IMG/VR virus record: IMGVR_UViG_3300025036_000356
Coordinates: 1 to 31,339 of that record
Reading direction: 5' to 3' (one strand)
DNA: 31,339 nucleotides
From: a virus
Taxonomy: Duplodnaviria; Caudoviricetes
The notes beneath the pieces are model-generated. The model worked only from the letters and a program-made list of their open reading frames with translations. It had not been told where the DNA came from and searched no databases. Each line of letters opens with the position of its first letter. Position 1 is the first letter of the stretch. Position numbers and translations under genes: made by a program. Of the stretch, positions 394-11,174 are shown piece after piece.

Positions 394-2460
394 ATGCCTG
401 ACGAGCAGGAGAATTGGGGTCGCGTGATACTCGGCGATTGCATTGACGCGATGCGAGAGATGCCGCCGGCATCAGTGGACGCGGTTATCACCGACCCCCC
501 GTATGGGTTAGAGTTTATGGGAAAGGAATGGGATAGGCTGAGCGGTAAAGGTAGATACCAGAAGGCGGATGTTTGGCAGGATGTCCATGGCTATTCGCCC
601 CCAAGCTATGTCGGCGGTTTCGCCGCACAGGAGTGGCATACTGGCTGGCTGTCCGAAGCGTTCCGCGTCCTCAAGCCTGGCGGCACACTGTTCGCGTTTG
701 CGGGCACTCGCACCTTCCACCGCCTAGCCTGTGCGATTGAGGACGTGGGGTTTGAGCTGAGGGATACTTTGCTATACCTTTACGGTTCAGGCTTCCCGAA
801 ATGTCAAGACCTCGGCGCGATGTATGACAAGGACGCCTGCCGCAAGGAGCTAACGGCGCAGCTTGGTAGAGCGCCCACCAGTGCAGAGTTCAAGGCGGCG
901 TGGAATATATTTAGGACGGTGGTGGGAATGGAGAAGGTTGATATCGGCATACAAGGCGGCTCAATGCACGCGGGACGGTCTAGCGAAGTGATAGAACGCC
1001 CAATCACCGCCCCGCGCACCGCCCTTGCTTGCGAATGGGATGGCTGGAAGGTGGGGGGGCTGAAACCCTCACATGAAGAAATCCTATATGCCCGCAAACC
1101 CTTGCCAATAGAGCTAGAAATGGGTATAATGGTTCGTAAGATATTATTGTATTGGAGTGAACTATGCCGGAACTCAAATGCACTAAATGTGGTAAACTCT
1201 TTACCGTCAAGCCCTCCCGCGTTAGGCAAGGCGCTCGGTATTGCAGTATCCAATGCCGAAGTGTTGATAGAGACCAGACGGGCGCTAACAACCCAATGTG
1301 GGGTAGAAAAGGCAGCGCCAATCCTGCCTGGAAAGGCGGACGCTTTAAGCGGACAGATGGCTACATTGCCGTCTGGACTGGCAACACCTATGAGCTTGAG
1401 CATCGGCTTGTTGTTAGCCGAAAGATTGGGCGGCCTCTTAGGCGCGGAGAAAACACTCACCATCTCAACGGCGACCGCGCTGATAACCGACCTGAGAATC
1501 TTGTCGTTATGGCTACGGGCGCTCATACAAGCCTGCACCATCGGGGCAAAGACCCAACCAAATGGAGGCGGGTTAAGTGCCTCACTTGCGGAAAGTATTT
1601 CCAGAAGCGCGTTGGCGAAGCTAGAGTTCATCGGTATCACTTCTGCTGCCGCGCCTGCTACATCGCCGGAGCGCATCTCACTCCTGGTAGAAGCCGGGCT
1701 GGTGTCGCCTGAAGCGGTCCCCAGCTACGAGCCAATCCTCTGGGCACGGCGTCCTTGCGAGGGCAGCGCGAGTGCCAATGTGCTCAAGTATGGCGTGGGA
1801 GCTTTCAATGCGGATGCGGGGAGGGTAGGGCTGACGGCAGAATGTAACCCTGACGCGATGCACAGCCAGCATAGCCAAGCTTCAATCAACAAAGGCGGCG
1901 CACAACCAGGGGACGAACAGCAAATGTTCAATCCCGCAGGACGATTCCCACCGAATCTACTTCTCAACGACCAAGCAGCCGCAATGCTGGACGCGCAGAG
2001 TGGAGAGAACGGTGCCTCCCGCTTCTTTCCCCGCTTTTCATACACGAGTAAGGCGATACATTGGGAACGCGAGGCGGGGCTGAAGGGTATGCCGTTGGGC
2101 GGTGCTCCAGAATCCGGTAGAAGTTCACCAGCAGCAGGGCGTAAAAGCGCACTAGGAGCGCCACGAATGAACACTAATCCTTGCGTGAAACCCATCCGCC
2201 TGATGCGTTGGCTGATTGAGCTGGTAACGCGAGAAAATGATACGGTCCTCGATCCTCTGGCAGGAAGTGGGAGCACGGGTTGCGCTGCCGTCTGGTGCGG
2301 GCGTGAGTTTATTGGAATCGAGAAAGAGGCTGAATACCATGCCATAGCTGTTGCCCGTGTGAAGTGGTGGGCGAAGCATAGGGGTAAAGAATATGACGCG
2401 ATTCAGCGCCAGTGGAACGCGGCGTCTGGCGATGCGCCATTGTTCGAGGAGATGAAATGA
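394..2460 (+). CDS. Beta-class N4-cytosine/N6-adenine DNA methyltransferase carrying a 218-codon in-frame insertion
   Basis: N-terminal GDCIDAM...VDAVITDPPYG (motif IV), FRVLKPGG, YGSGFPK; C-terminal NPCVKPIRLMRWLIELVT...VLDPLAGSGSTG (motif I)...FIGIEKE. The segment at about 1066-1719 is non-MTase sequence. Confidence 0.9.
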   Translation: MPDEQENWGRVILGDCIDAMREMPPASVDAVITDPPYGLEFMGKEWDRLSGKGRYQKADVWQDVHGYSPPSYVGGFAAQEWHTGWLSEAFRVLKPGGTLFAFAGTRTFHRLACAIEDVGFELRDTLLYLYGSGFPKCQDLGAMYDKDACRKELTAQLGRAPTSAEFKAAWNIFRTVVGMEKVDIGIQGGSMHAGRSSEVIERPITAPRTALACEWDGWKVGGLKPSHEEILYARKPLPIELEMGIMVRKILLYWSELCRNSNALNVVNSLPSSPPALGKALGIAVSNAEVLIETRRALTTQCGVEKAAPILPGKADALSGQMATLPSGLATPMSLSIGLLLAERLGGLLGAEKTLTISTATALITDLRILSLWLRALIQACTIGAKTQPNGGGLSASLAESISRSALAKLEFIGITSAAAPATSPERISLLVEAGLVSPEAVPSYEPILWARRPCEGSASANVLKYGVGAFNADAGRVGLTAECNPDAMHSQHSQASINKGGAQPGDEQQMFNPAGRFPPNLLLNDQAAAMLDAQSGENGASRFFPRFSYTSKAIHWEREAGLKGMPLGGAPESGRSSPAAGRKSALGAPRMNTNPCVKPIRLMRWLIELVTRENDTVLDPLAGSGSTGCAAVWCGREFIGIEKEAEYHAIAVARVKWWAKHRGKEYDAIQRQWNAASGDAPLFEEMK
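1102..1130 (+). promoter_or_regulatory. Sigma70-type promoter for the nested HNH gene
   Basis: TTGCCA (1102-1107), 17 bp, TATAAT (1125-1130); followed by GGAG (1154-1157) 6 nt before the ATG at 1164. Confidence 0.8.
1164..1712 (+). CDS. Nested HNH homing-type endonuclease with N- and C-terminal zinc fingers (different frame from the MTase)
   Basis: CTKC...YCSIQC zinc finger; NNPMWG/NPAWKGG NUMOD3-like motifs; EHRLV...HHLNGDRADNRPENL...H HNH core; CLTC...FCCRAC finger; own RBS and promoter. Confidence 0.9.
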   Translation: MPELKCTKCGKLFTVKPSRVRQGARYCSIQCRSVDRDQTGANNPMWGRKGSANPAWKGGRFKRTDGYIAVWTGNTYELEHRLVVSRKIGRPLRRGENTHHLNGDRADNRPENLVVMATGAHTSLHHRGKDPTKWRRVKCLTCGKYFQKRVGEARVHRYHFCCRACYIAGAHLTPGRSRAGVA

Positions 2461-2943: not shown

Positions 2944-3177
2944 TTACTTGATGAGAGATATGATAACGCCCGTCAAGGCACTCGTAGTCGGCACCGCTAG
3001 CCCGATGAGCCAGTAGAGAACATCGACCCGCGACTCCGTTCTCCCGACCCGCTCTCCGAACTTCGACAGGCTGCTGTAAATCCCATCGAGTTTAGCTTGA
3101 ATCGCCCCGATGTCGCGCCCTAGGTCAGCCAGCTTATACTCGGTCAGTTGGTTCGCTTTGGGTGAATCATTCGTCAT
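2944..3177 (-). CDS. Coiled-coil protein with C-terminal TM helix (XhlA-like/holin-associated)
   Basis: Heptad-like LGRDIGAIQAKLDGIYSSLSKFGERVGRTE followed by hydrophobic VLYWLIGLAVPTTSALTGVIISLI; ATGA overlap with the upstream gene. Confidence 0.6.
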   Translation of the reverse strand: MTNDSPKANQLTEYKLADLGRDIGAIQAKLDGIYSSLSKFGERVGRTESRVDVLYWLIGLAVPTTSALTGVIISLIK

Positions 3178-6100
3178 GGTGCTCTTGCTCCTTTGTATTG
3201 ACGTCTGATTGTTTCGAGCTTGCGTTGCTTGAGCAGTTGCTGCTCCTCGCTGATAGCCTGGAGAATCGGGAACAGCCGATGCGTATTGCCCCGTTTCTGT
3301 TCAACTCGATACAGCTTGCGCAGCATCAGTATCTTGGTCTCAGGGTCGTTCTTAATGGTCTCGAACTGATTCAGGCTGATGATGTGCCGGTCGGACTGGA
3401 TAGCATCATAGGTCTGCTTCCAGCGTTCCCGTGCCGCCTTGTCTTGCGGGTCCAGCAACGCCTTCATCCACTGGTCTCGCACTGCCTCGCGGCTGCTCCG
3501 AACCAGGCGCTGCGGAATGTCGGTGCGCCTCGTCGCTCCCGGAAGACCGGTCCAGAAGCCTATCTGGCGATAGAGGCTGGAAAACGGAGTGGGCAGGAGC
3601 CGATTGATAGTCTGCTTGCCTATCCGTCGCGTCCATTCTTTCATCGTTCCTGCCTGCCCGTATGGCGTAGGCTCGGGCCGGTAGGCGATTCCGCCTAGCA
3701 TATTGACCAGGTCAGAACCCGTGGGTCCGAGAATCAGCGATGACATGCCGCCGGTGCCAGCCGAAACCGCCTCCTGAATATCGCCCAGAATGCCGAAAGT
3801 TCCGCCCCTTTGCACATCCTGCCACAGGCGCTTGCTCAGATTGCTCATCAAGGCTTCGTCCCACATGTATTTCAGCGCAAGTCCTTGATGAACCGACATC
3901 GCATCCAGCAGGCGGTCGATATGCGGGTCTTCATCCTCCCCCAGCGGCCAGCGGAATTGCCACTTCACGATTTTGCGGATGGGCAGAATCACTTCACCAA
4001 CTACAGCCGCTGCACCGGCAAGTTGCACAAAGCGTCCGGCAGCGGCCAGCCGGGGCAAGTAGATATTGTAATGTCCGAACAACGACAGCATGGGCACGAT
4101 GTTGTGATTGCGATAGGCTTCATCCAGCACGTTACGCTTGATGAACTTGCCAGCCATGAATGCAAACTGCTTGTATCGCATCGCCGTCTTGGCGATTGGA
4201 GTCTGCCAGAAGGGCGGAAGCTGCTCTTTGCCAATCACAAACTGCGTCTCGCGGGAATGCCACTCGAAGACGCGGTCGTAAATCGCACTTTTCACATCAT
4301 CGGTTATTGTGTTCCAGCCCCTGACCTCACGGGGCAGCATCTGCCGATGTTCCAGCTGCGACATCACCATCTTCGCCTCGGCGGTCTCCATGCCACCGGC
4401 GGCTTTCACCAAGCGGCGATAGCGACCGATGAGGCGGGTTACATTCAGCACCCCGGCTTCACCGCTCACATAGCGGGCGATAGCATCAGTCGCCTTGAAG
4501 CCGGTGACTGTCAGCACCTTGTTGTTCCAGGCGGCAGCCCAGCCCGGGTCTGCCAGATGCGCATATAGATACTCTCCCAGCACCCGCGAATACTGAGCAC
4601 GCTCGATAATGGCACGGCGGAAAGCCGGATTGGTGGCGAACTTCCCCAGGGTTTCCAGGGTATTGCGATAGCCCGAAAGCTCGCCCGAAAACAGTATCAT
4701 CTGAGAAATGTTCCAGACCTGAGCCAGATTGAGCTTGAGCGGATTCTGGATGGCGCTATCGACCTGACTGACCTTCGACATGAACGAATTATCTACCGCC
4801 GGACGCAGCACCATCCGGTCAACCATATCGAGATACCCGGATACGAACTCTGCATGTTCAGGCGACTTCGCCGCCAGGGCACTTATAGCTTTAGCGGCAG
4901 TCGTGTGCCACTTGCTGTAATGCTCACCGAAAGCCACGGTCTCGCCGATGTAACGGTATACGCTATTGAAATACGAATAGAGCGCCATCGGCACATCATC
5001 ATCGACCCAGCCCGGCAGATTGAGCACCCGGGGCAGGAAGTGGGCGCTGAAAACATCCGGTCGTGCCGCCGACCTATGGGTTACTCCCAATGCCATCCGC
5101 ATAATCCCCATCCAGCCCTCGGCCTCAAACGCGGTGCGCGCCTGCCCCATCATCGCTTGCGGGATTCCCTGTGCCCCAATGTCGGGACCCCCGATGCGGG
5201 CTACGAGCGAGCGATAGACGCCCCACTTGACCGGGTCCTGAATCGTCTTGAGAACATGCAGCATCTGCTCGGTGTAGAGCTTATCGCTGAACTTGCCGAT
5301 TGCCGCCATCAGGGCTTCCCGGTCCTGAACCAGCTGCAAATAGCCGGCCTCTCCCAGCTGTTTGCGTAAGCTCGTAGCAATGATGCTCAGATGATTCATC
5401 GTCTTCTGAATCTTATCGGCATGCTGCACATGGGGGAAGAAGTTAATGCGTGGACGCAGAACCTCCGTATGATGCACGAGTTGCCAGTAACTCTCACGCA
5501 GCGATTCCGTGAGTGCCGGGTTGTTTATCGCCTTGAAGAAAGCAGTTTGCTGAGCCTCGGGTGAAAGTTTCAAGAAGGTAGGGGCATCCATGCCGAAGAC
5601 TTCGCCGAACTTCGGGTCCCCCAGTGCCTCCGCATGAAGGAAATGCCGCACCCGCTTAACGTTAGCTGCGATTTGAGGAATGATTTCCTTGAGTTCGGCG
5701 CTTACATCACTAGCTACCCGTTTTGCCAGTGCGGTCTCGCCAGCCGTCAGTCCCTGGAGCGCTTCTTCCTTGCCGCTATCTAGAAACGCGATGACAGCTC
5801 TATGCACGTGCTTGCCAGCATGGCGTCCCTCTCCCCTGATGATTAGCTTGGCGGCATTCACATAGGCTGCTCCCGCCATCCGCCCGACAATCTTGTTTGT
5901 GAGGTCAAGCATATTGGCGAGGTCATAGAGCGGCTCGGCGGCTCTCGGTGCGATTTTGCCCAAGTCTCGGGCAAGCCCACGCAGCCCCGATTCCACACCG
6001 CTCAACCCATAAGCAACGATACGGCGCATCCAGAGGGCAGTCTTGTCGAGGCTGTTTCGGCTAAGATGTTTCAGACCCCTATCTATCTCGGCATTAAGCC

Positions 6101-9100
6101 CGGAGACAAGAGCCGAGGCTGCCTCTTTGTTCGCCTCTTCTTGCTGAAGCATCCCGCGATATTCCTCGGGGATGTTTTCAAGTGCGAGCTGACCGTCCTT
6201 ATATGCTTGTCGCAGCCCAGCGAACTCTGCCCAATTCTCATCCGACATGCCAGGCGGCGGCTCCTCAAGCACCGAGGGAGCGCCTTCCTCACGAGGCAGA
6301 CGCCATTGCTCAAAATCTTGATTCTGTTTATTCAGGATACGCTCGATAGCTACGGCTTGTATCTGTGCGTTACGGTCGGCAACCGGCGTCTCCGGGGGCG
6401 CTCCGCCTTCCGGCGGGCCAGGCTCTGGCGGGATTGCTTCTGGCGGCACTGCCTCGCCACCTGCCGCCGGCGGAGGAGGCGCTGGCGGACCCTTGCCCCC
6501 TGGTTTCGGAGGCTCTATGGGCGGTCTAGGGGCTATGGCTTCGCGGGCTGCCTGCTGCCCTGCCCGCTGCCCTGCCCACTCCATTACCGCCTCATCGAGA
6601 ATCTCGCCAGTTGGACTCACATAAGCGGTGCCATCACGGATACGGGCATAGGCTTCTTCCGCTATCTGTGCAGCCGCCTCGTCTCGCGGCAGTCCTTCAA
6701 CTACCGCATGGCGCTCAATGAGTTTGTCGAGATTGACGGTTCCGAAGGGGTCTTCAGCATACGCCTCCCGCATCAGCTTATCAATCTTGGTAGGAGGCAG
6801 CCTGCCGCCACGTCCGCGAGCCCGGGTAATCCAGGGAAAACTCTCCGTCCGCATCGGTCGCTGTTCTCGGACTAGTCCGAGCAGCTCATTGGCGTGCTCG
6901 GCGATTTTCTCCGATACCCTGCTGGCACCAGGCACCGCCGCCCAGTCTCGGGACAGATAGCCGAGCTGGAGGTCCGCCAGTTCGCCGGGGGGCATTCGGA
7001 AGTCCATCAGCGGTATATCCATGCCCTCTTTGGTCATCGCGTTCAGATAGTTCTCAAGGTTGCCCAGCTTGATAATCGAGCCTTCTTGCTCCAGCTTGCG
7101 GAACCAGCCCAGATAATCCGAGGGCTTGATACCAACAGCGAATCCAGGCTTGACCATGCCCTGGTCGAGCCAGAGCGCTTCAAGTTGCTTCCGCGTTAGC
7201 TGGAGCTGCACATTGCCATATCGCAGTGTTTTTTCGATATGAACGATTTCATTCTGGAGAGTCTTGTAGACCAACTTGGCTTCCTCGTCCCCATAGAGGT
7301 CGCGGAGCAGCCGATAACCAATGCGCGGGACATCTATGTCGGGCTTGCCCGTAAGTCCTCTGATAGCCCCACTGCGTTTCGCCAGCACTCCCACAAGGTC
7401 GATATACCCGCCATACTCGCCAGCCTGGTAAATCTCCACGATTTGCTTGAAGACCTGCTCATCGGCGGCGGCGGCGAACTTCAGCAATTCTTCGTGCCCA
7501 ATCTGCACCGCGACCTGGCGGGCATGGAAGCTGTCGGGAAGGGGCACCTTTCCGGTTTGGAGCTTCTTCAACATCCCGTTAGCCAGTGCCCAGCCCTTGA
7601 TGTTATCGAAGATTACAATCTCTTTGCCCGGAACCGAGTAGTCGATAATCTGGTATGGTCCTTCTCCTTCGAGAGGTTTGATGTCGAACCACCGAGGAAC
7701 CGAGAGCTTGCCCCATTGCTCCGGCGGCACATCCCATATGTCTTCAGCCTCCAGGATACGTGCCAGCTTGGGCATTTTACGCTTGACCGCTTCCCAGGCT
7801 GGCTTGTTACGCCGCAGCGTTTCCAGCACTGCCAGCATGTTCTGCCGGAAAGCACCCATCTCCTGCCCCTCTATAACCCTATAAACTGCCTCAAGGGGAA
7901 ACGGCGTCGTCTTGCCTTCGCCCTTCCGGGGTAGCTTCTTCCCGAGGATTTCATCCACGATGCCATAACGGCGAGCTACCGCTTCAGCGAGTGAATACCG
8001 CACCTCGTGACCAGCAACAGTAATAGTCTTCCCGGGCTTCAGTCTGCCCGCACGACTCAACATGCTGGTGAGCTTCTCGAATACACGCTTGGCGATTGGC
8101 TCATAGAGATACCGGTTCACGCCCGTCAGACCCTCGGTTATGGCGTTCGCCAACTCCTTGATAGCCGGACTCTTTGCACCTTCGGAACCGCCCACGACAC
8201 GGACAATCGTTGGAATCTGTCCTTCGTCTAGCACCTTGGCAAGCGCCTTTTCAGCGGCAGAGGCATCCAGGCCCAGATTGAGGGCAAACGGATTGCCTTC
8301 GCGGACGATGTTCATTCCTGCGAGTGCAGCCTTCCCCTCGGGCACGCTCCCATACACACGTATGAGTTCCGCATCGTCTACCATGAGATTCATCTTGCTC
8401 GGCACCAGCGCTTCAGTGAGCTGGTCGAACTTGCGGACTATGCGCCCCCACTCCTTGCGCTGCGCCGCTGAACGTCCAGCCATCCCCTTCCCTATCTGCT
8501 CCGGGCTGTATCCCAGCTTCTTCAGCACATAGGCCCGCATGTTAAGCCGTTCAGCATGCCACAGGATAGGCTCCGGGGTGATTTTCGGTAACTGAGCCTC
8601 ACGACCGCCCCGTAGCTCCGCATACAGGTCACCGGGGATGGTGTCCGCGAGTTCGCGGGCCTCCTCGGTTTGACCCTTGTCCACAAGGTCACTAACCTTC
8701 TTCACGGCGCGCTTGAGCTTCTGCTGTGTCCAATCGCCGAACACTGATGTCTCGACCTTCACCGGCTCGCCTTCCCGCGCCAGCTTATTGTTCTTGTGCA
8801 GCCAGTCGACAATCGCCGAGGCGACCTTATTTTGCATCTGGACATCAGCGGCCCGCTGGGCAATCAGCCCGCTGTGTTTCACCAGGTGCTCCAGCCTTTG
8901 TGCCAAGCGATGCCCTTCGCCTGGAAGCAGCACATTGGTTACATAGCGCATGTTGCTAGGCGTAAGCTCGCCACCAGTATGCTCGAAGATATAACCGACC
9001 ACGCCGTGGCGGCTCTGCTGCACCGATATGAGATATTTGCTCCCCTTGGGCATGACTATCTGGAGTTCTTTATGCGCCGTTGGATTGAGCGACCTCAAGC

Positions 9101-11174
9101 GGCCAGTCGCCTGTCCGATTCCGAAGTGCCGAAATCCCGAAAGCCATCGCGTGAGTTTTGCACTACCAAGTCCATCGAACACTGGCGGTATCTTGAACTT
9201 GCGGGCGAGAGCTGCCATCGGCTCATCCATCTCGCCGGTGAAGCCCTCGCCGGCCAGGGTTTCAATCACGTCATTCACACCGGTATCGTAGAACCGATAG
9301 AGCTTCCTGAACATCTCATCTGTGGCGTTGGGCTTGGTTAAGTCGAGCTCTTTGACCCCGGCGAGTTTCCCGTTACGATAATAGGCCCACGCCATCTCAT
9401 CGCCCTTGCCCGGCACCGGTATGAGAATATCGCCTGAGCGCTCCCCGATAGCCCGCTCCACTATTGGAATGGCAAGTCCACTCTCATCGACCATAAAGAG
9501 CTCGTATGAATCCGCCCCCTCCGGACGAGGCCGGAAGCCATGGTGTAGATTCAATTCTCGCTGAGTCTGCCCGCGTGCACTCAGTTCGTCAAAGAAGGCA
9601 TCGTATTTGCCCTCCAACGCTATCTCGGCTTCGGGTGAAAGGTCTTGCGCAAATTCTTCAGCCGCTACCCTAAGCTGCTCGCCATAACCGAGAAGACGGT
9701 CTCCATGGAGCCGGCCAAACACTACCGCATCCTCTCCGGGCACAAGCTCGAAAACCCCTCCGTCAAGAGCTTGCTCAAGCAGTTTGGCATATCGGTCAGC
9801 CTGCCCGCGCCCGGTGATGTAGTCGCGGCTTAGCTTGAACATCTCCTCGAAGCTAATCTTGTCGTTGCCGTATGTCTTGGCGAGCTCGGTGAGGAAGGCA
9901 ATTTCCGACGATTCACCCCGCTCTACTAGCTGCTCCAGGGGTGAAGTCTTCGCCCGGCCGTGAGACCATAATGCCTTTTCTACCCCGCCCCGTGCCCTTT
10001 CAAGATAACTGGGATAACCGTAGGTTTCTACCACTTCGCCAGTCAGGGGGTCAACCTCAAGGCCGGTTCCGATTTGCACGGCTTCTGTGGTGCCCGTAGC
10101 CGCATCGTCAGCAGCCTGTGAAGCCGCGCTCTCTTGGGCGTTCAGTTGCTTGACTGGATGCACGTCCCCGGCGCCGTCGATGACCTTGTCGACATACTTG
10201 CCAACCCGCGCCCAGGGAGCGCCGATGGCATAATAACCGGTCGTCGCTCCCAGCTCGAAAGCGCCCCAGATAAGCCCCGTCTTGTGCATGGCTTCCCACA
10301 TGTTGCGAGCCTGGGACTTATCCGGTGTGCCCGTGCTCGCATAGAGCGCACCTAGCCCATAAGCGTGCCCTGCACGCTCGTAGGTGCTCGCTCGCGCAAG
10401 GTGCGAGAGCGCACTGTAACCCCACTGTCCGAACCTATCAGTTCTGCCGGCGAGCTTGGTGAGGCCGCTAACGCGCTGCACGAATCCCTCGGCATTCTTG
10501 ATAACCCGCTCGGCTTTGTATAGGAACTTGCCAACGCTGGCACCCTTGTATAGCGTCGGATACGCCCTACCGGTGGCGGTTAGCATTTTGCCCGCGACTG
10601 CCCCGGCCCTCGCCAGTCGCGCTGCTTTGGCACCAGCCCCAATCAGTCCCCCGCCAAGAAGCAAGGTGCCAATGCTGGTCACAGCTTCGGCTCCGAACGG
10701 ATGGACTTCGCCCAGCACGGGCAATGTAACGCCTGGACCCTTGGCGTAAGCCATGCCCAAGCCCGTCGCCGGTCGCATAAATCCTTCCTCGCCGAAGCCT
10801 GGTATGTATTCGCCAAAGGGCAGACCGCGCATGCCACCGTAAACACTGCCGATTACTCGCTCCGAAAAGCGCTCCCCGGCTCCCGTGGGTTCATAGCCTT
10901 TCCCATATATCAGACGGCCAAACTCCTCCACGGCCGGGCGCTCTACTGGTGGCGCAACTCTCTCTCCGGTCGGTGTCCGCTCGATTCGCGGATAGACCGC
11001 CTCCGCCATACCCTGAACACGACGGTATTTGGCGAGAGCCGCCATCTCATAGGGAGTCAGACGGCGGGCGGGAATATCCCTGCCCAGGGCTCGCAGTTTC
11101 TGATATACCCGCTGTGCGTCCAGCGCGTGTATCGCAGCCCGCTGCTCTTCCGGCGTTAGGATTTCTTCAGGCAT
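3174..11174 (-). CDS. Giant internal virion/DNA ejection protein (2666 aa)
   Basis: Last and largest of three consecutive genes after the tail nozzle and GNAT; mostly helical Ala/Gly/Glu-rich sequence; hydrophobic N-terminal segments; central Pro-rich linker. Function inferred from gene order. Confidence 0.7.
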   Translation of the reverse strand: MPEEILTPEEQRAAIHALDAQRVYQKLRALGRDIPARRLTPYEMAALAKYRRVQGMAEAVYPRIERTPTGERVAPPVERPAVEEFGRLIYGKGYEPTGAGERFSERVIGSVYGGMRGLPFGEYIPGFGEEGFMRPATGLGMAYAKGPGVTLPVLGEVHPFGAEAVTSIGTLLLGGGLIGAGAKAARLARAGAVAGKMLTATGRAYPTLYKGASVGKFLYKAERVIKNAEGFVQRVSGLTKLAGRTDRFGQWGYSALSHLARASTYERAGHAYGLGALYASTGTPDKSQARNMWEAMHKTGLIWGAFELGATTGYYAIGAPWARVGKYVDKVIDGAGDVHPVKQLNAQESAASQAADDAATGTTEAVQIGTGLEVDPLTGEVVETYGYPSYLERARGGVEKALWSHGRAKTSPLEQLVERGESSEIAFLTELAKTYGNDKISFEEMFKLSRDYITGRGQADRYAKLLEQALDGGVFELVPGEDAVVFGRLHGDRLLGYGEQLRVAAEEFAQDLSPEAEIALEGKYDAFFDELSARGQTQRELNLHHGFRPRPEGADSYELFMVDESGLAIPIVERAIGERSGDILIPVPGKGDEMAWAYYRNGKLAGVKELDLTKPNATDEMFRKLYRFYDTGVNDVIETLAGEGFTGEMDEPMAALARKFKIPPVFDGLGSAKLTRWLSGFRHFGIGQATGRLRSLNPTAHKELQIVMPKGSKYLISVQQSRHGVVGYIFEHTGGELTPSNMRYVTNVLLPGEGHRLAQRLEHLVKHSGLIAQRAADVQMQNKVASAIVDWLHKNNKLAREGEPVKVETSVFGDWTQQKLKRAVKKVSDLVDKGQTEEARELADTIPGDLYAELRGGREAQLPKITPEPILWHAERLNMRAYVLKKLGYSPEQIGKGMAGRSAAQRKEWGRIVRKFDQLTEALVPSKMNLMVDDAELIRVYGSVPEGKAALAGMNIVREGNPFALNLGLDASAAEKALAKVLDEGQIPTIVRVVGGSEGAKSPAIKELANAITEGLTGVNRYLYEPIAKRVFEKLTSMLSRAGRLKPGKTITVAGHEVRYSLAEAVARRYGIVDEILGKKLPRKGEGKTTPFPLEAVYRVIEGQEMGAFRQNMLAVLETLRRNKPAWEAVKRKMPKLARILEAEDIWDVPPEQWGKLSVPRWFDIKPLEGEGPYQIIDYSVPGKEIVIFDNIKGWALANGMLKKLQTGKVPLPDSFHARQVAVQIGHEELLKFAAAADEQVFKQIVEIYQAGEYGGYIDLVGVLAKRSGAIRGLTGKPDIDVPRIGYRLLRDLYGDEEAKLVYKTLQNEIVHIEKTLRYGNVQLQLTRKQLEALWLDQGMVKPGFAVGIKPSDYLGWFRKLEQEGSIIKLGNLENYLNAMTKEGMDIPLMDFRMPPGELADLQLGYLSRDWAAVPGASRVSEKIAEHANELLGLVREQRPMRTESFPWITRARGRGGRLPPTKIDKLMREAYAEDPFGTVNLDKLIERHAVVEGLPRDEAAAQIAEEAYARIRDGTAYVSPTGEILDEAVMEWAGQRAGQQAAREAIAPRPPIEPPKPGGKGPPAPPPPAAGGEAVPPEAIPPEPGPPEGGAPPETPVADRNAQIQAVAIERILNKQNQDFEQWRLPREEGAPSVLEEPPPGMSDENWAEFAGLRQAYKDGQLALENIPEEYRGMLQQEEANKEAASALVSGLNAEIDRGLKHLSRNSLDKTALWMRRIVAYGLSGVESGLRGLARDLGKIAPRAAEPLYDLANMLDLTNKIVGRMAGAAYVNAAKLIIRGEGRHAGKHVHRAVIAFLDSGKEEALQGLTAGETALAKRVASDVSAELKEIIPQIAANVKRVRHFLHAEALGDPKFGEVFGMDAPTFLKLSPEAQQTAFFKAINNPALTESLRESYWQLVHHTEVLRPRINFFPHVQHADKIQKTMNHLSIIATSLRKQLGEAGYLQLVQDREALMAAIGKFSDKLYTEQMLHVLKTIQDPVKWGVYRSLVARIGGPDIGAQGIPQAMMGQARTAFEAEGWMGIMRMALGVTHRSAARPDVFSAHFLPRVLNLPGWVDDDVPMALYSYFNSVYRYIGETVAFGEHYSKWHTTAAKAISALAAKSPEHAEFVSGYLDMVDRMVLRPAVDNSFMSKVSQVDSAIQNPLKLNLAQVWNISQMILFSGELSGYRNTLETLGKFATNPAFRRAIIERAQYSRVLGEYLYAHLADPGWAAAWNNKVLTVTGFKATDAIARYVSGEAGVLNVTRLIGRYRRLVKAAGGMETAEAKMVMSQLEHRQMLPREVRGWNTITDDVKSAIYDRVFEWHSRETQFVIGKEQLPPFWQTPIAKTAMRYKQFAFMAGKFIKRNVLDEAYRNHNIVPMLSLFGHYNIYLPRLAAAGRFVQLAGAAAVVGEVILPIRKIVKWQFRWPLGEDEDPHIDRLLDAMSVHQGLALKYMWDEALMSNLSKRLWQDVQRGGTFGILGDIQEAVSAGTGGMSSLILGPTGSDLVNMLGGIAYRPEPTPYGQAGTMKEWTRRIGKQTINRLLPTPFSSLYRQIGFWTGLPGATRRTDIPQRLVRSSREAVRDQWMKALLDPQDKAARERWKQTYDAIQSDRHIISLNQFETIKNDPETKILMLRKLYRVEQKRGNTHRLFPILQAISEEQQLLKQRKLETIRRQYKGARAP

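Follow-up and report, generated by a model that had tools for sequence, protein, structure and literature searches.

The ShiLan domain is an HNH endonuclease carried out of frame within mycobacteriophage methylases (Gosselin 2023, PMC9957025; Arsenault 2025, PMC11855218). In the part of PMC11855218 that was consulted, the insert is proposed to be retained in the protein and the HNH to be translated leaderless from a GTG 18 nt into the insert, the latter because its authors saw no ribosome-binding site; that part of the 2025 paper leaves open both the retention of the insert in the methylase and the route of HNH expression. As far as they were covered, the main texts of both papers hold no codon or selection analysis, and promoters go unmentioned in the main text of PMC11855218 and in the covered part of PMC9957025. 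A literature search, in which subscription papers were mostly not covered, found no other treatment.

We analyzed a locus of this kind in the window, a 31,339-nt stretch of viral DNA that constitutes a 31.3-kb tailed-phage contig with matches to terminase, head, adaptor and endolysin proteins; the public DNA runs that contain its methylase gene are labelled as groundwater or aquifer metagenomes, and none of the 24 runs listed is of RNA. The basic design, an out-of-frame HNH in a methylase, is already published; the contribution of the locus and its relatives appears to lie in support for selected read-through, for replacement of a strand and for expression signals inside the insert. It is in our view probable that a ShiLan-type HNH lies out of frame in the methylase, that the insert is not spliced but translated as a loop, predicted to be helical, which the methylase tolerates, and that the HNH is made separately.

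The methylase gene, its insert and the hidden HNH

The gene, its insert and the open reading frames that overlap them are as follows.

394..2460, plus strand: beta-class N6/N4 DNA methyltransferase, 688 aa, of which the insert makes up 218 (Pfam N6_N4_Mtase, E 4.7e-28)
493..504, plus strand: DPPY catalytic motif, 5′ of the insert (from the sequence)
2251..2277, plus strand: SAM-binding motif DPLAGSGST, 3′ of the insert (from the sequence; best Pfam stretch at residues 595-653)
1069..1722, plus strand: ShiLan-type insertion, 654 nt or 218 codons, stop-free in the methylase frame (alignment with the insert-free ChotaBhai gp99)
1164..1712, plus strand: out-of-frame HNH endonuclease, 182 aa, with a zinc finger, an HNH_3 core and a second zinc finger (Pfam HNH_3, E 1.6e-7)
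804..1676, minus strand: antisense ORF, 290 aa (no Pfam match)

The methylase has fold matches to CcrM, M.RsrI and M.MboII, and with DPPY ahead of the variable region and the SAM-binding motif behind it, it belongs to the beta class of N6/N4 methyltransferases. Since DPPY precedes the insert and the SAM-binding motif follows it, both halves of the gene are needed. Both motifs were found in 25 of the 30 complete invaded methylase ORFs among the matches listed, a count made with strict patterns and with the misses left uninspected. Related methylase alleles on contigs of the same runs differ in blocks (771-1723, 1826-1978 and 2084-2159 of the window), which describes a mosaic gene population. 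A separate free-standing HNH (PF01844) lies immediately 5′ of the methylase at 3-389 and, likewise, ShiLan has an HNH gene, gp64, directly upstream of gp65. Further along the window, a 2666-aa ORF on the minus strand (3174-11174) had no PHROGs match and occupies the place where a podovirus-like phage might encode an ejection protein, a guess from position.

The boundary of the insert can slide by a shared CCC codon. In runs X1-X3, another contig matches the window from 1723 on (33/35 nt) and is preceded there by codons ending in GGIKP, which makes it an insert-free relative; run X4 holds a second insert-free relative. Since the first relative rejoins the window at 1723, the insert comprises 1069-1722, or 218 codons, and of the two copies of a strand motif at its ends the 3′ one stems from the host and the 5′ one from the element. 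Single contigs span the insert in runs X1, X2 and X5, and it is therefore not an assembly artefact.

The ATG of the HNH is nt 96 of the insert and its TGA falls 10 nt short of the insert end, with only 105 nt of the insert outside the HNH ORF. Its Cys, His and Asn columns were invariant in 7/7 aligned sequences. Searching PDB sequences with the HNH yielded no match below E 0.1, a viral scan with the single HNH protein gave two weak loci, and a protein search gave 31 matches without genomic context. The methylase-frame product of the insert had no Pfam match and, used as a query, retrieved only the window's own cluster and matches to the flanks. The antisense ORF was rejected as a gene; it is most likely a by-product, open because it lies antisense to the HNH frame, where TTA, CTA and TCA codons are all absent.

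Stop avoidance and amino acid selection in the methylase frame

The first-pass annotation had proposed that codon choice in the HNH is selected to keep the overlapping methylase frame free of stops, and its description of the window was confirmed on recounting. HNH codons begin one base before methylase codons, which thus start at position 2 of HNH codons as claimed, and 25 of 26 Leu, Val and Ile codons have the form NTY (Leu CTC 5, CTT 4 and CTG 1, the last followed by CAC; Val GTC 4 and GTT 8; Ile ATC 2 and ATT 2), exactly as had been counted by hand. CTG and GTG are indeed common in the methylase flanks, at 12/32 Leu and 11/22 Val codons, respectively. When the HNH was recoded the frame seldom stayed open: there were 0 stops versus 6.0 expected from codon usage in 21 long contig ORFs (P=3.5e-4, exact), zero stops occurred in 5 of 20,000 simulations of the window, and the zero-stop probability with methylase-flank codon usage was 2.9e-5. 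The probability of at least 25/26 NTY in the window was 2.8e-7. The HNH at 3-389, put forward for comparison, had NTY at 16/30 codons and seven stops in the equivalent offset frame versus 4.9 expected.

Stop avoidance as the cause of the NTY bias held up in part, but NTY is required to avoid a stop at no more than 13 of the 26 sites; once stops are excluded, one would expect 19.8 NTY codons, and the observed 25 are still in excess (P=0.002), so that a further cause is needed. The rest of the window's T/C bias is selection on methylase-frame amino acids. Even within its family the window stands at the extreme: the median NTY fraction is 0.79, and one of the 44 other loci reaches 25/26 (among the matches listed).

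The family was assembled from three scans, keeping the best 80 matches each (viral 17 and metagenome 8 of 64 parts), which gave at least 238 loci; with the window and eight annotated phage loci this made 247 with an HNH match, of which 51 were nested in the +1 frame in the window's methylase family, 8 had another arrangement and 188 lacked a match to that methylase family. Loci beside or in a methylase but otherwise arranged (L016, L017, L041, L051, L111, L123, L125 and L170) were excluded from both sets, and collapse at 80% identity left 45 nested and 166 free-standing loci. The nested class was set by flanking methylase homology and not by frame openness, and the free-standing set includes at least L109 and L110, which are nested in other methylases.

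Among the matches listed, the methylase frame was stop-free over the matched stretch in 45/45 nested loci, which range in GC from 0.29 to 0.70 and for which a median of 4.7 stops per locus was expected from their own flank usage, versus 22/166 free-standing loci (12/98 of those with at least 100 codons). Free-standing homologues did not share the codon bias either, their median NTY fraction being 0.56 versus 0.79 in nested loci (among the matches listed), which favors the original proposal. The avoidance also depended on context: among the matches listed, Leu and Val codons carried G in the third position before A in 0/192 nested versus 148/508 free-standing cases, and Met before A accounted for 0/83 ATN codons versus 90/298, whereas before C or T the third-position G was as frequent in nested (82/285) as in free-standing loci (241/908, p=0.49). 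NTG avoidance is restricted to the context in which A comes next, the exact stop signature. The relatives have a median HNH identity of 50% (among the matches listed), and pooled p-values overstate their independence because they share ancestry. Two of the excluded loci, L016 and L017, have a 48%-identical HNH with one stop, next to a methylase whose N-terminal half is frame-shifted and whose C-terminal match is absent; such a decayed methylase implies that the element can outlast the host frame, and these loci may represent a decayed host or an escaped element.

Selection appears to reach beyond stops. Given no stop, Arg in the methylase frame of nested loci has an observed/expected ratio of 0.45 and lies under expectation in 45/45 loci, Trp (0.59) and Gly (0.67) are also depleted, and Glu (2.04), Gln (1.82), Asp (1.70) and Leu (1.56) are enriched, with a median net charge of the product of -4 versus +7; the deviations are much smaller in 137 free-standing controls (Arg 0.94, Trp 0.85, Glu 1.28, Leu 1.09, Phe 1.43), all among the matches listed. 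As a control that is independent of GC, we compared Lys, Glu and Gln codons, which in nested loci among the matches listed end in G in 107/350 cases (31%) where this creates Arg versus 360/634 (57%) where it creates Ser (p=2e-15; 32 loci lower and 12 higher of 45). The effect is absent from free-standing loci (869/1654 versus 701/1265, or 53 versus 55%) and from methylase flanks (761/1435 versus 526/905, or 53 versus 58%) among the same matches. The window alone has 8 Arg versus 19.5 expected, 31 Leu versus 11.3 and 1 Trp versus 4.8, and none of six context tests was significant in the window alone. Since a skipped RNA could not be selected for the avoidance of stops or Arg, the insert would be translated. 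The earlier preference for read-through over RNA splicing is thus supported, and by a stronger argument than the one first given, namely that methylase-frame amino acids seem to be selected beyond stop avoidance.

Fate of the insert and expression of the HNH

Two copies of the strand motif and two candidate expression signals bear on what becomes of the insert and its HNH.

1069..1101, plus strand: 5′ duplicate of the host strand, carried by the element, SHEEILYARKP (Glu kept in 31/31; modelled strand 224-234, pLDDT 71-80)
1723..1755, plus strand: host-derived 3′ strand copy, SYEPILWARRP (33/35 nt identical to the insert-free relative of runs X1-X3)
1102..1130, plus strand: predicted sigma70-type promoter, -35 TTGCCA (1102-1107), 17-nt spacer, -10 TATAAT (1125-1130) (11/12 consensus matches)
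1154..1160, plus strand: Shine-Dalgarno-like GGAG (1154-1157) and HNH-frame TGA (1158-1160) (from the sequence)

The Glu of the strand is present in 60/60 insert-free genes. In invaded loci among the matches listed it is kept in 31/31 of the 5′ copies versus 22/31 of the 3′ copies, and the strand Lys in 33/33 versus 26/33; the motif was scored in 31-33 of the 45 nested loci, with 12-14 left out. Exact removal of the insert would in many cases leave the strand defective, whereas its retention, with the 5′ copy in the core, accounts for this pattern. The element's 5′ duplicate is predicted to take the place of the host strand in the methylase. An AlphaFold model built from 38 invaded sequences (pLDDT 61.8, pTM 0.55, no contacts given) has a strand at 224-234 (pLDDT 71-80) and none at 441-449 (below 50), with long helices across 239-433 at pLDDT mostly 30-60; the model, albeit weak, is consistent with the 5′ copy lying in the core.

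An Rfam scan of 300-2600 gave three sub-threshold matches and no intron family even at E<=5. Neither a ribozyme core nor the sequence marks of group I or II introns (a U before the 5′ splice site with a terminal G, or a GUGCG start) were found; among the matches listed, the last base of the insert is G in 3/31 and the base before the insert T in 2/31. No intein match was found in the methylase-frame insert, which has no Hint domain and does not follow the intein pattern of Cys or Ser first, Asn or Gln last and Cys, Ser or Thr at +1: among the matches listed, its last residue is Pro in 25/33, not Asn or Gln, its first is Ala in 20/33, and the residue at +1 is Asn, Ser or Ala. A duplex of the two junction regions (-37 kcal/mol), computed without a shuffled control, was set aside as evidence.

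The HNH is likely made from an internal, leadered transcript, judging from signals at its 5′ end. The predicted promoter, whose bases also code for methylase-frame residues, is followed by a GGAG six bases before the HNH ATG. A methylase-HNH fusion by -1 frameshifting was rejected in the window, because the TGA two codons ahead of the ATG leaves few bases where a frameshift could fuse the two. Among the matches listed, 27/39 relatives have a stop in the HNH frame within 30 codons of the first Cys, and a promoter of at least 9/12 was found in 16/39 relatives versus 4/199 flank windows and of at least 10/12 in 13/39 versus 0/199, the remaining 23/39 scoring under 9/12, mycobacteriophage Mantra (6/12) included; 39 of the 45 nested loci entered this scoring and six were unscorable. 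A -10 box of at least 5/6 was present in 25/39 versus 19/199, mostly at a constant distance from the start, and a Shine-Dalgarno word in 25/39 versus a background of 178/1393, the former count being inflated because starts with the motif were preferred (among the matches listed). ShiLan and Mantra have no clear sigma70 promoter, and in both GGAGG precedes a GTG, which in ShiLan lies 26 codons downstream of the published start. A seven-row DNA alignment of hand-picked rows served as illustration only.

Taken together, translation would run through all 688 codons and leave the 218-aa insert within the methylase, where the element's 5′ duplicate would supply the core beta-strand and so shift the real interruption to a looser position after the strand. 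A short mRNA from about 1137, with its own promoter and ribosome-binding site, would yield the HNH, which would cut or nick alleles lacking the insert close to the KP|xxEP codons, after which repair would copy the element in. Neither junction rebuilds a full LKPxxEP site, and the invaded allele would therefore be protected.

Other readings start from the same open frame. If the insert were translated and then removed as protein, by splicing or a proteolytic route, an open frame would likewise be required, so that the stop data fit, and in the window a Ser follows the junction; we nevertheless consider this very unlikely, given that there is no intein match in the methylase frame, that the terminal and +1 residues described above are not those of inteins, and that precise removal would leave a strand without the invariant Glu in 9/31 cases (among the matches listed). 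Still less probable is an RNA intron or ribosomal bypass with an incidentally open frame. The duplicated flanking motif does resemble the exon mimicry of group I introns, a point raised in the covered part of PMC11855218, but the scan for intron families was negative at E<=5, the HNH ORF takes up all but 105 nt of the insert, the bases at the insert ends are rarely those of an intron, and a skipped RNA would escape selection for the avoidance of stops or Arg. Chance, or a third-position T/C bias inherited with the HNH gene, can practically be dismissed: the T/C-richness of other window codons (Ala 13/14, Gly 14/19) and the 22/166 free-standing matches that are stop-free by chance (among the matches listed) speak for it, but the avoidance tracks the next base in the exact stop pattern, purines are not depleted overall in four-fold families (0.487 versus 0.491, nested versus free-standing), the pattern holds over GC 0.29-0.70 (among the matches listed), and at family level such readings are already refuted.

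The insert might instead be a domesticated helical domain with its own role; it might, for example, bind or restrain the HNH or alter the methylase. The strong shift to Glu, Leu and Gln and away from Arg, Trp and Gly and the long helices predicted across 239-433 would agree with this, but these data are also accounted for by selection for a loop that is soluble and non-basic, the helices have pLDDT values mostly of 30-60, and 79/80 methylase homologues do without such an HNH insert; we regard this as unlikely. A broader proposal, which we hold to be doubtful though less so than any of these, is a self-accommodating, splice-free mobile insert in which about 100 5′ bases would serve as a Glu-bearing replacement strand, promoter and ribosome-binding site, and in which an acidic helical hairpin, evolved de novo in the other frame by way of the nuclease gene's synonymous positions, would be a functional folded domain, for example one that restrains the nuclease. 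The tolerated, translated loop with a separately made HNH, which we favor, would be a clean example from nature of how a parasite can spare its host gene with no splicing involved, and of how synonymous positions in one gene can mould a new polypeptide in the overlapping frame.

Mobility and relation to known systems

We infer a homing endonuclease function for the HNH, as suggested by its distribution and its intact HNH residues. Insert-free relatives are present in runs X1-X4, and one of 80 methylases fetched with the methylase N-terminus carries such an HNH (L270, at a site after GFPK). On a core tree of 62 rows, from which 25 of the 45 nested loci were left off for want of a complete core, the 20 invaded hosts need 10-11 changes versus 17 for shuffled labels, three supported sister pairs mix invaded and insert-free states, and a single clade of invaded hosts is rejected (AU p=1e-6); invaded hosts are more clustered than shuffled labels, and the tree cannot separate gain from loss. 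At the 5′ junction the Pro after Glu is lost in 27/33, and at the 3′ junction Lys precedes Pro in 4/33 (among the matches listed), losses that would follow from the intact site being the target.

Further hidden inserts were noted along the way. L038, L101, L102, L113 and L270 have close HNH relatives in the window's frame, at a site just after GFPK instead of LKP and without the strand duplicate, and here the element seems to have changed its site within the methylase gene. A second hidden-HNH class in the window's methylase family (L041, L051 and L111, after GFPK, GFSK and GMPK, and L123, after GRWPAN) uses the other offset frame and other sites and is also stop-free; it comprises independent origins of the out-of-frame HNH. 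L109, L110 and L125 hold hidden HNHs in the other offset frame of permuted or unrelated N6/N4 methylases. In L170 (250-1844), an intein-like insert that starts CLSDD and ends VTGN interrupts WVYG|SGFPK in the window's methylase family, without a Pfam intein match and with the HNH off-frame where ShiLan's intein has an in-frame endonuclease. The methylases of L172, L022, L174 and L107 seem to carry further Ser/Thr-rich or duplicated inserts, and possibly other hidden ORFs.

By sequence homology the window element is a new, divergent member of the published ShiLan domain family. A tblastn search of annotated phages placed the hidden HNHs of Cr-LKS3 (44%), Mantra (43%) and ShiLan (41%, E 1e-33) at the top, the last aligned over residues 3-178, and the window shares with the ShiLan domain the zinc finger-HNH-zinc finger homologue (41-43%), an N6/N4 methylase host, the site LKP|xxEP, the frame offset of 2 found in the window, ShiLan, Mantra and Cr-LKS3, the stop-free host frame, the patchy spread among methylase alleles and the absence of an intron or intein signal. 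The duplicated start is shared too: the first 11 or so insert residues resemble the next 11 after the insert (SHEEILYARKP versus SYEPILWARRP), with 16/33 nt identical. Details of mycobacteriophage copies, the GTG at nt 18 and a terminal TAAC, are lacking in the window; they are not defining, since Mantra and Starcevich copies in the covered part of PMC11855218 itself differ. The window insert has 218 codons versus 202 in ShiLan and a non-mycobacterial context, and its HNH has an ATG with a Shine-Dalgarno sequence, a stop in frame upstream and a sigma70 promoter close to consensus, whereas the ShiLan paper saw no ribosome-binding site. Absent from the papers found are an internal sigma70-type promoter and Shine-Dalgarno sequence enriched across relatives, and a 5′ strand duplicate in which the invariant Glu persists as it disappears from the host copy. 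Among the matches listed, the 45 diverged copies give sequence-level answers, in the form of selected read-through, an internal promoter with a ribosome-binding site and a changed start codon for ShiLan.

The ShiLan family reaches far past mycobacteriophages, and gene callers miss members, as in Cylindrospermopsis phage Cr-LKS3, whose g59 (OM373202) is annotated only as a DNA methylase; its hidden, unannotated HNH is 44% identical to that of the window and has the same site and frame, although it is shorter and the recorded host is a cyanobacterium. Inteins whose endonucleases are out of frame or antisense, as described in the covered part of bioRxiv 2025.01.02.630785, resemble the window in that the endonuclease is off-frame and the host frame open, but they splice out as protein, whereas the window has neither a Hint domain nor splice residues. 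Group I introns with HNH homing endonucleases, like the window, place an HNH within a phage gene and make homing likely; unlike them, the window has no ribozyme core or terminal G, and its host frame is open and selected.
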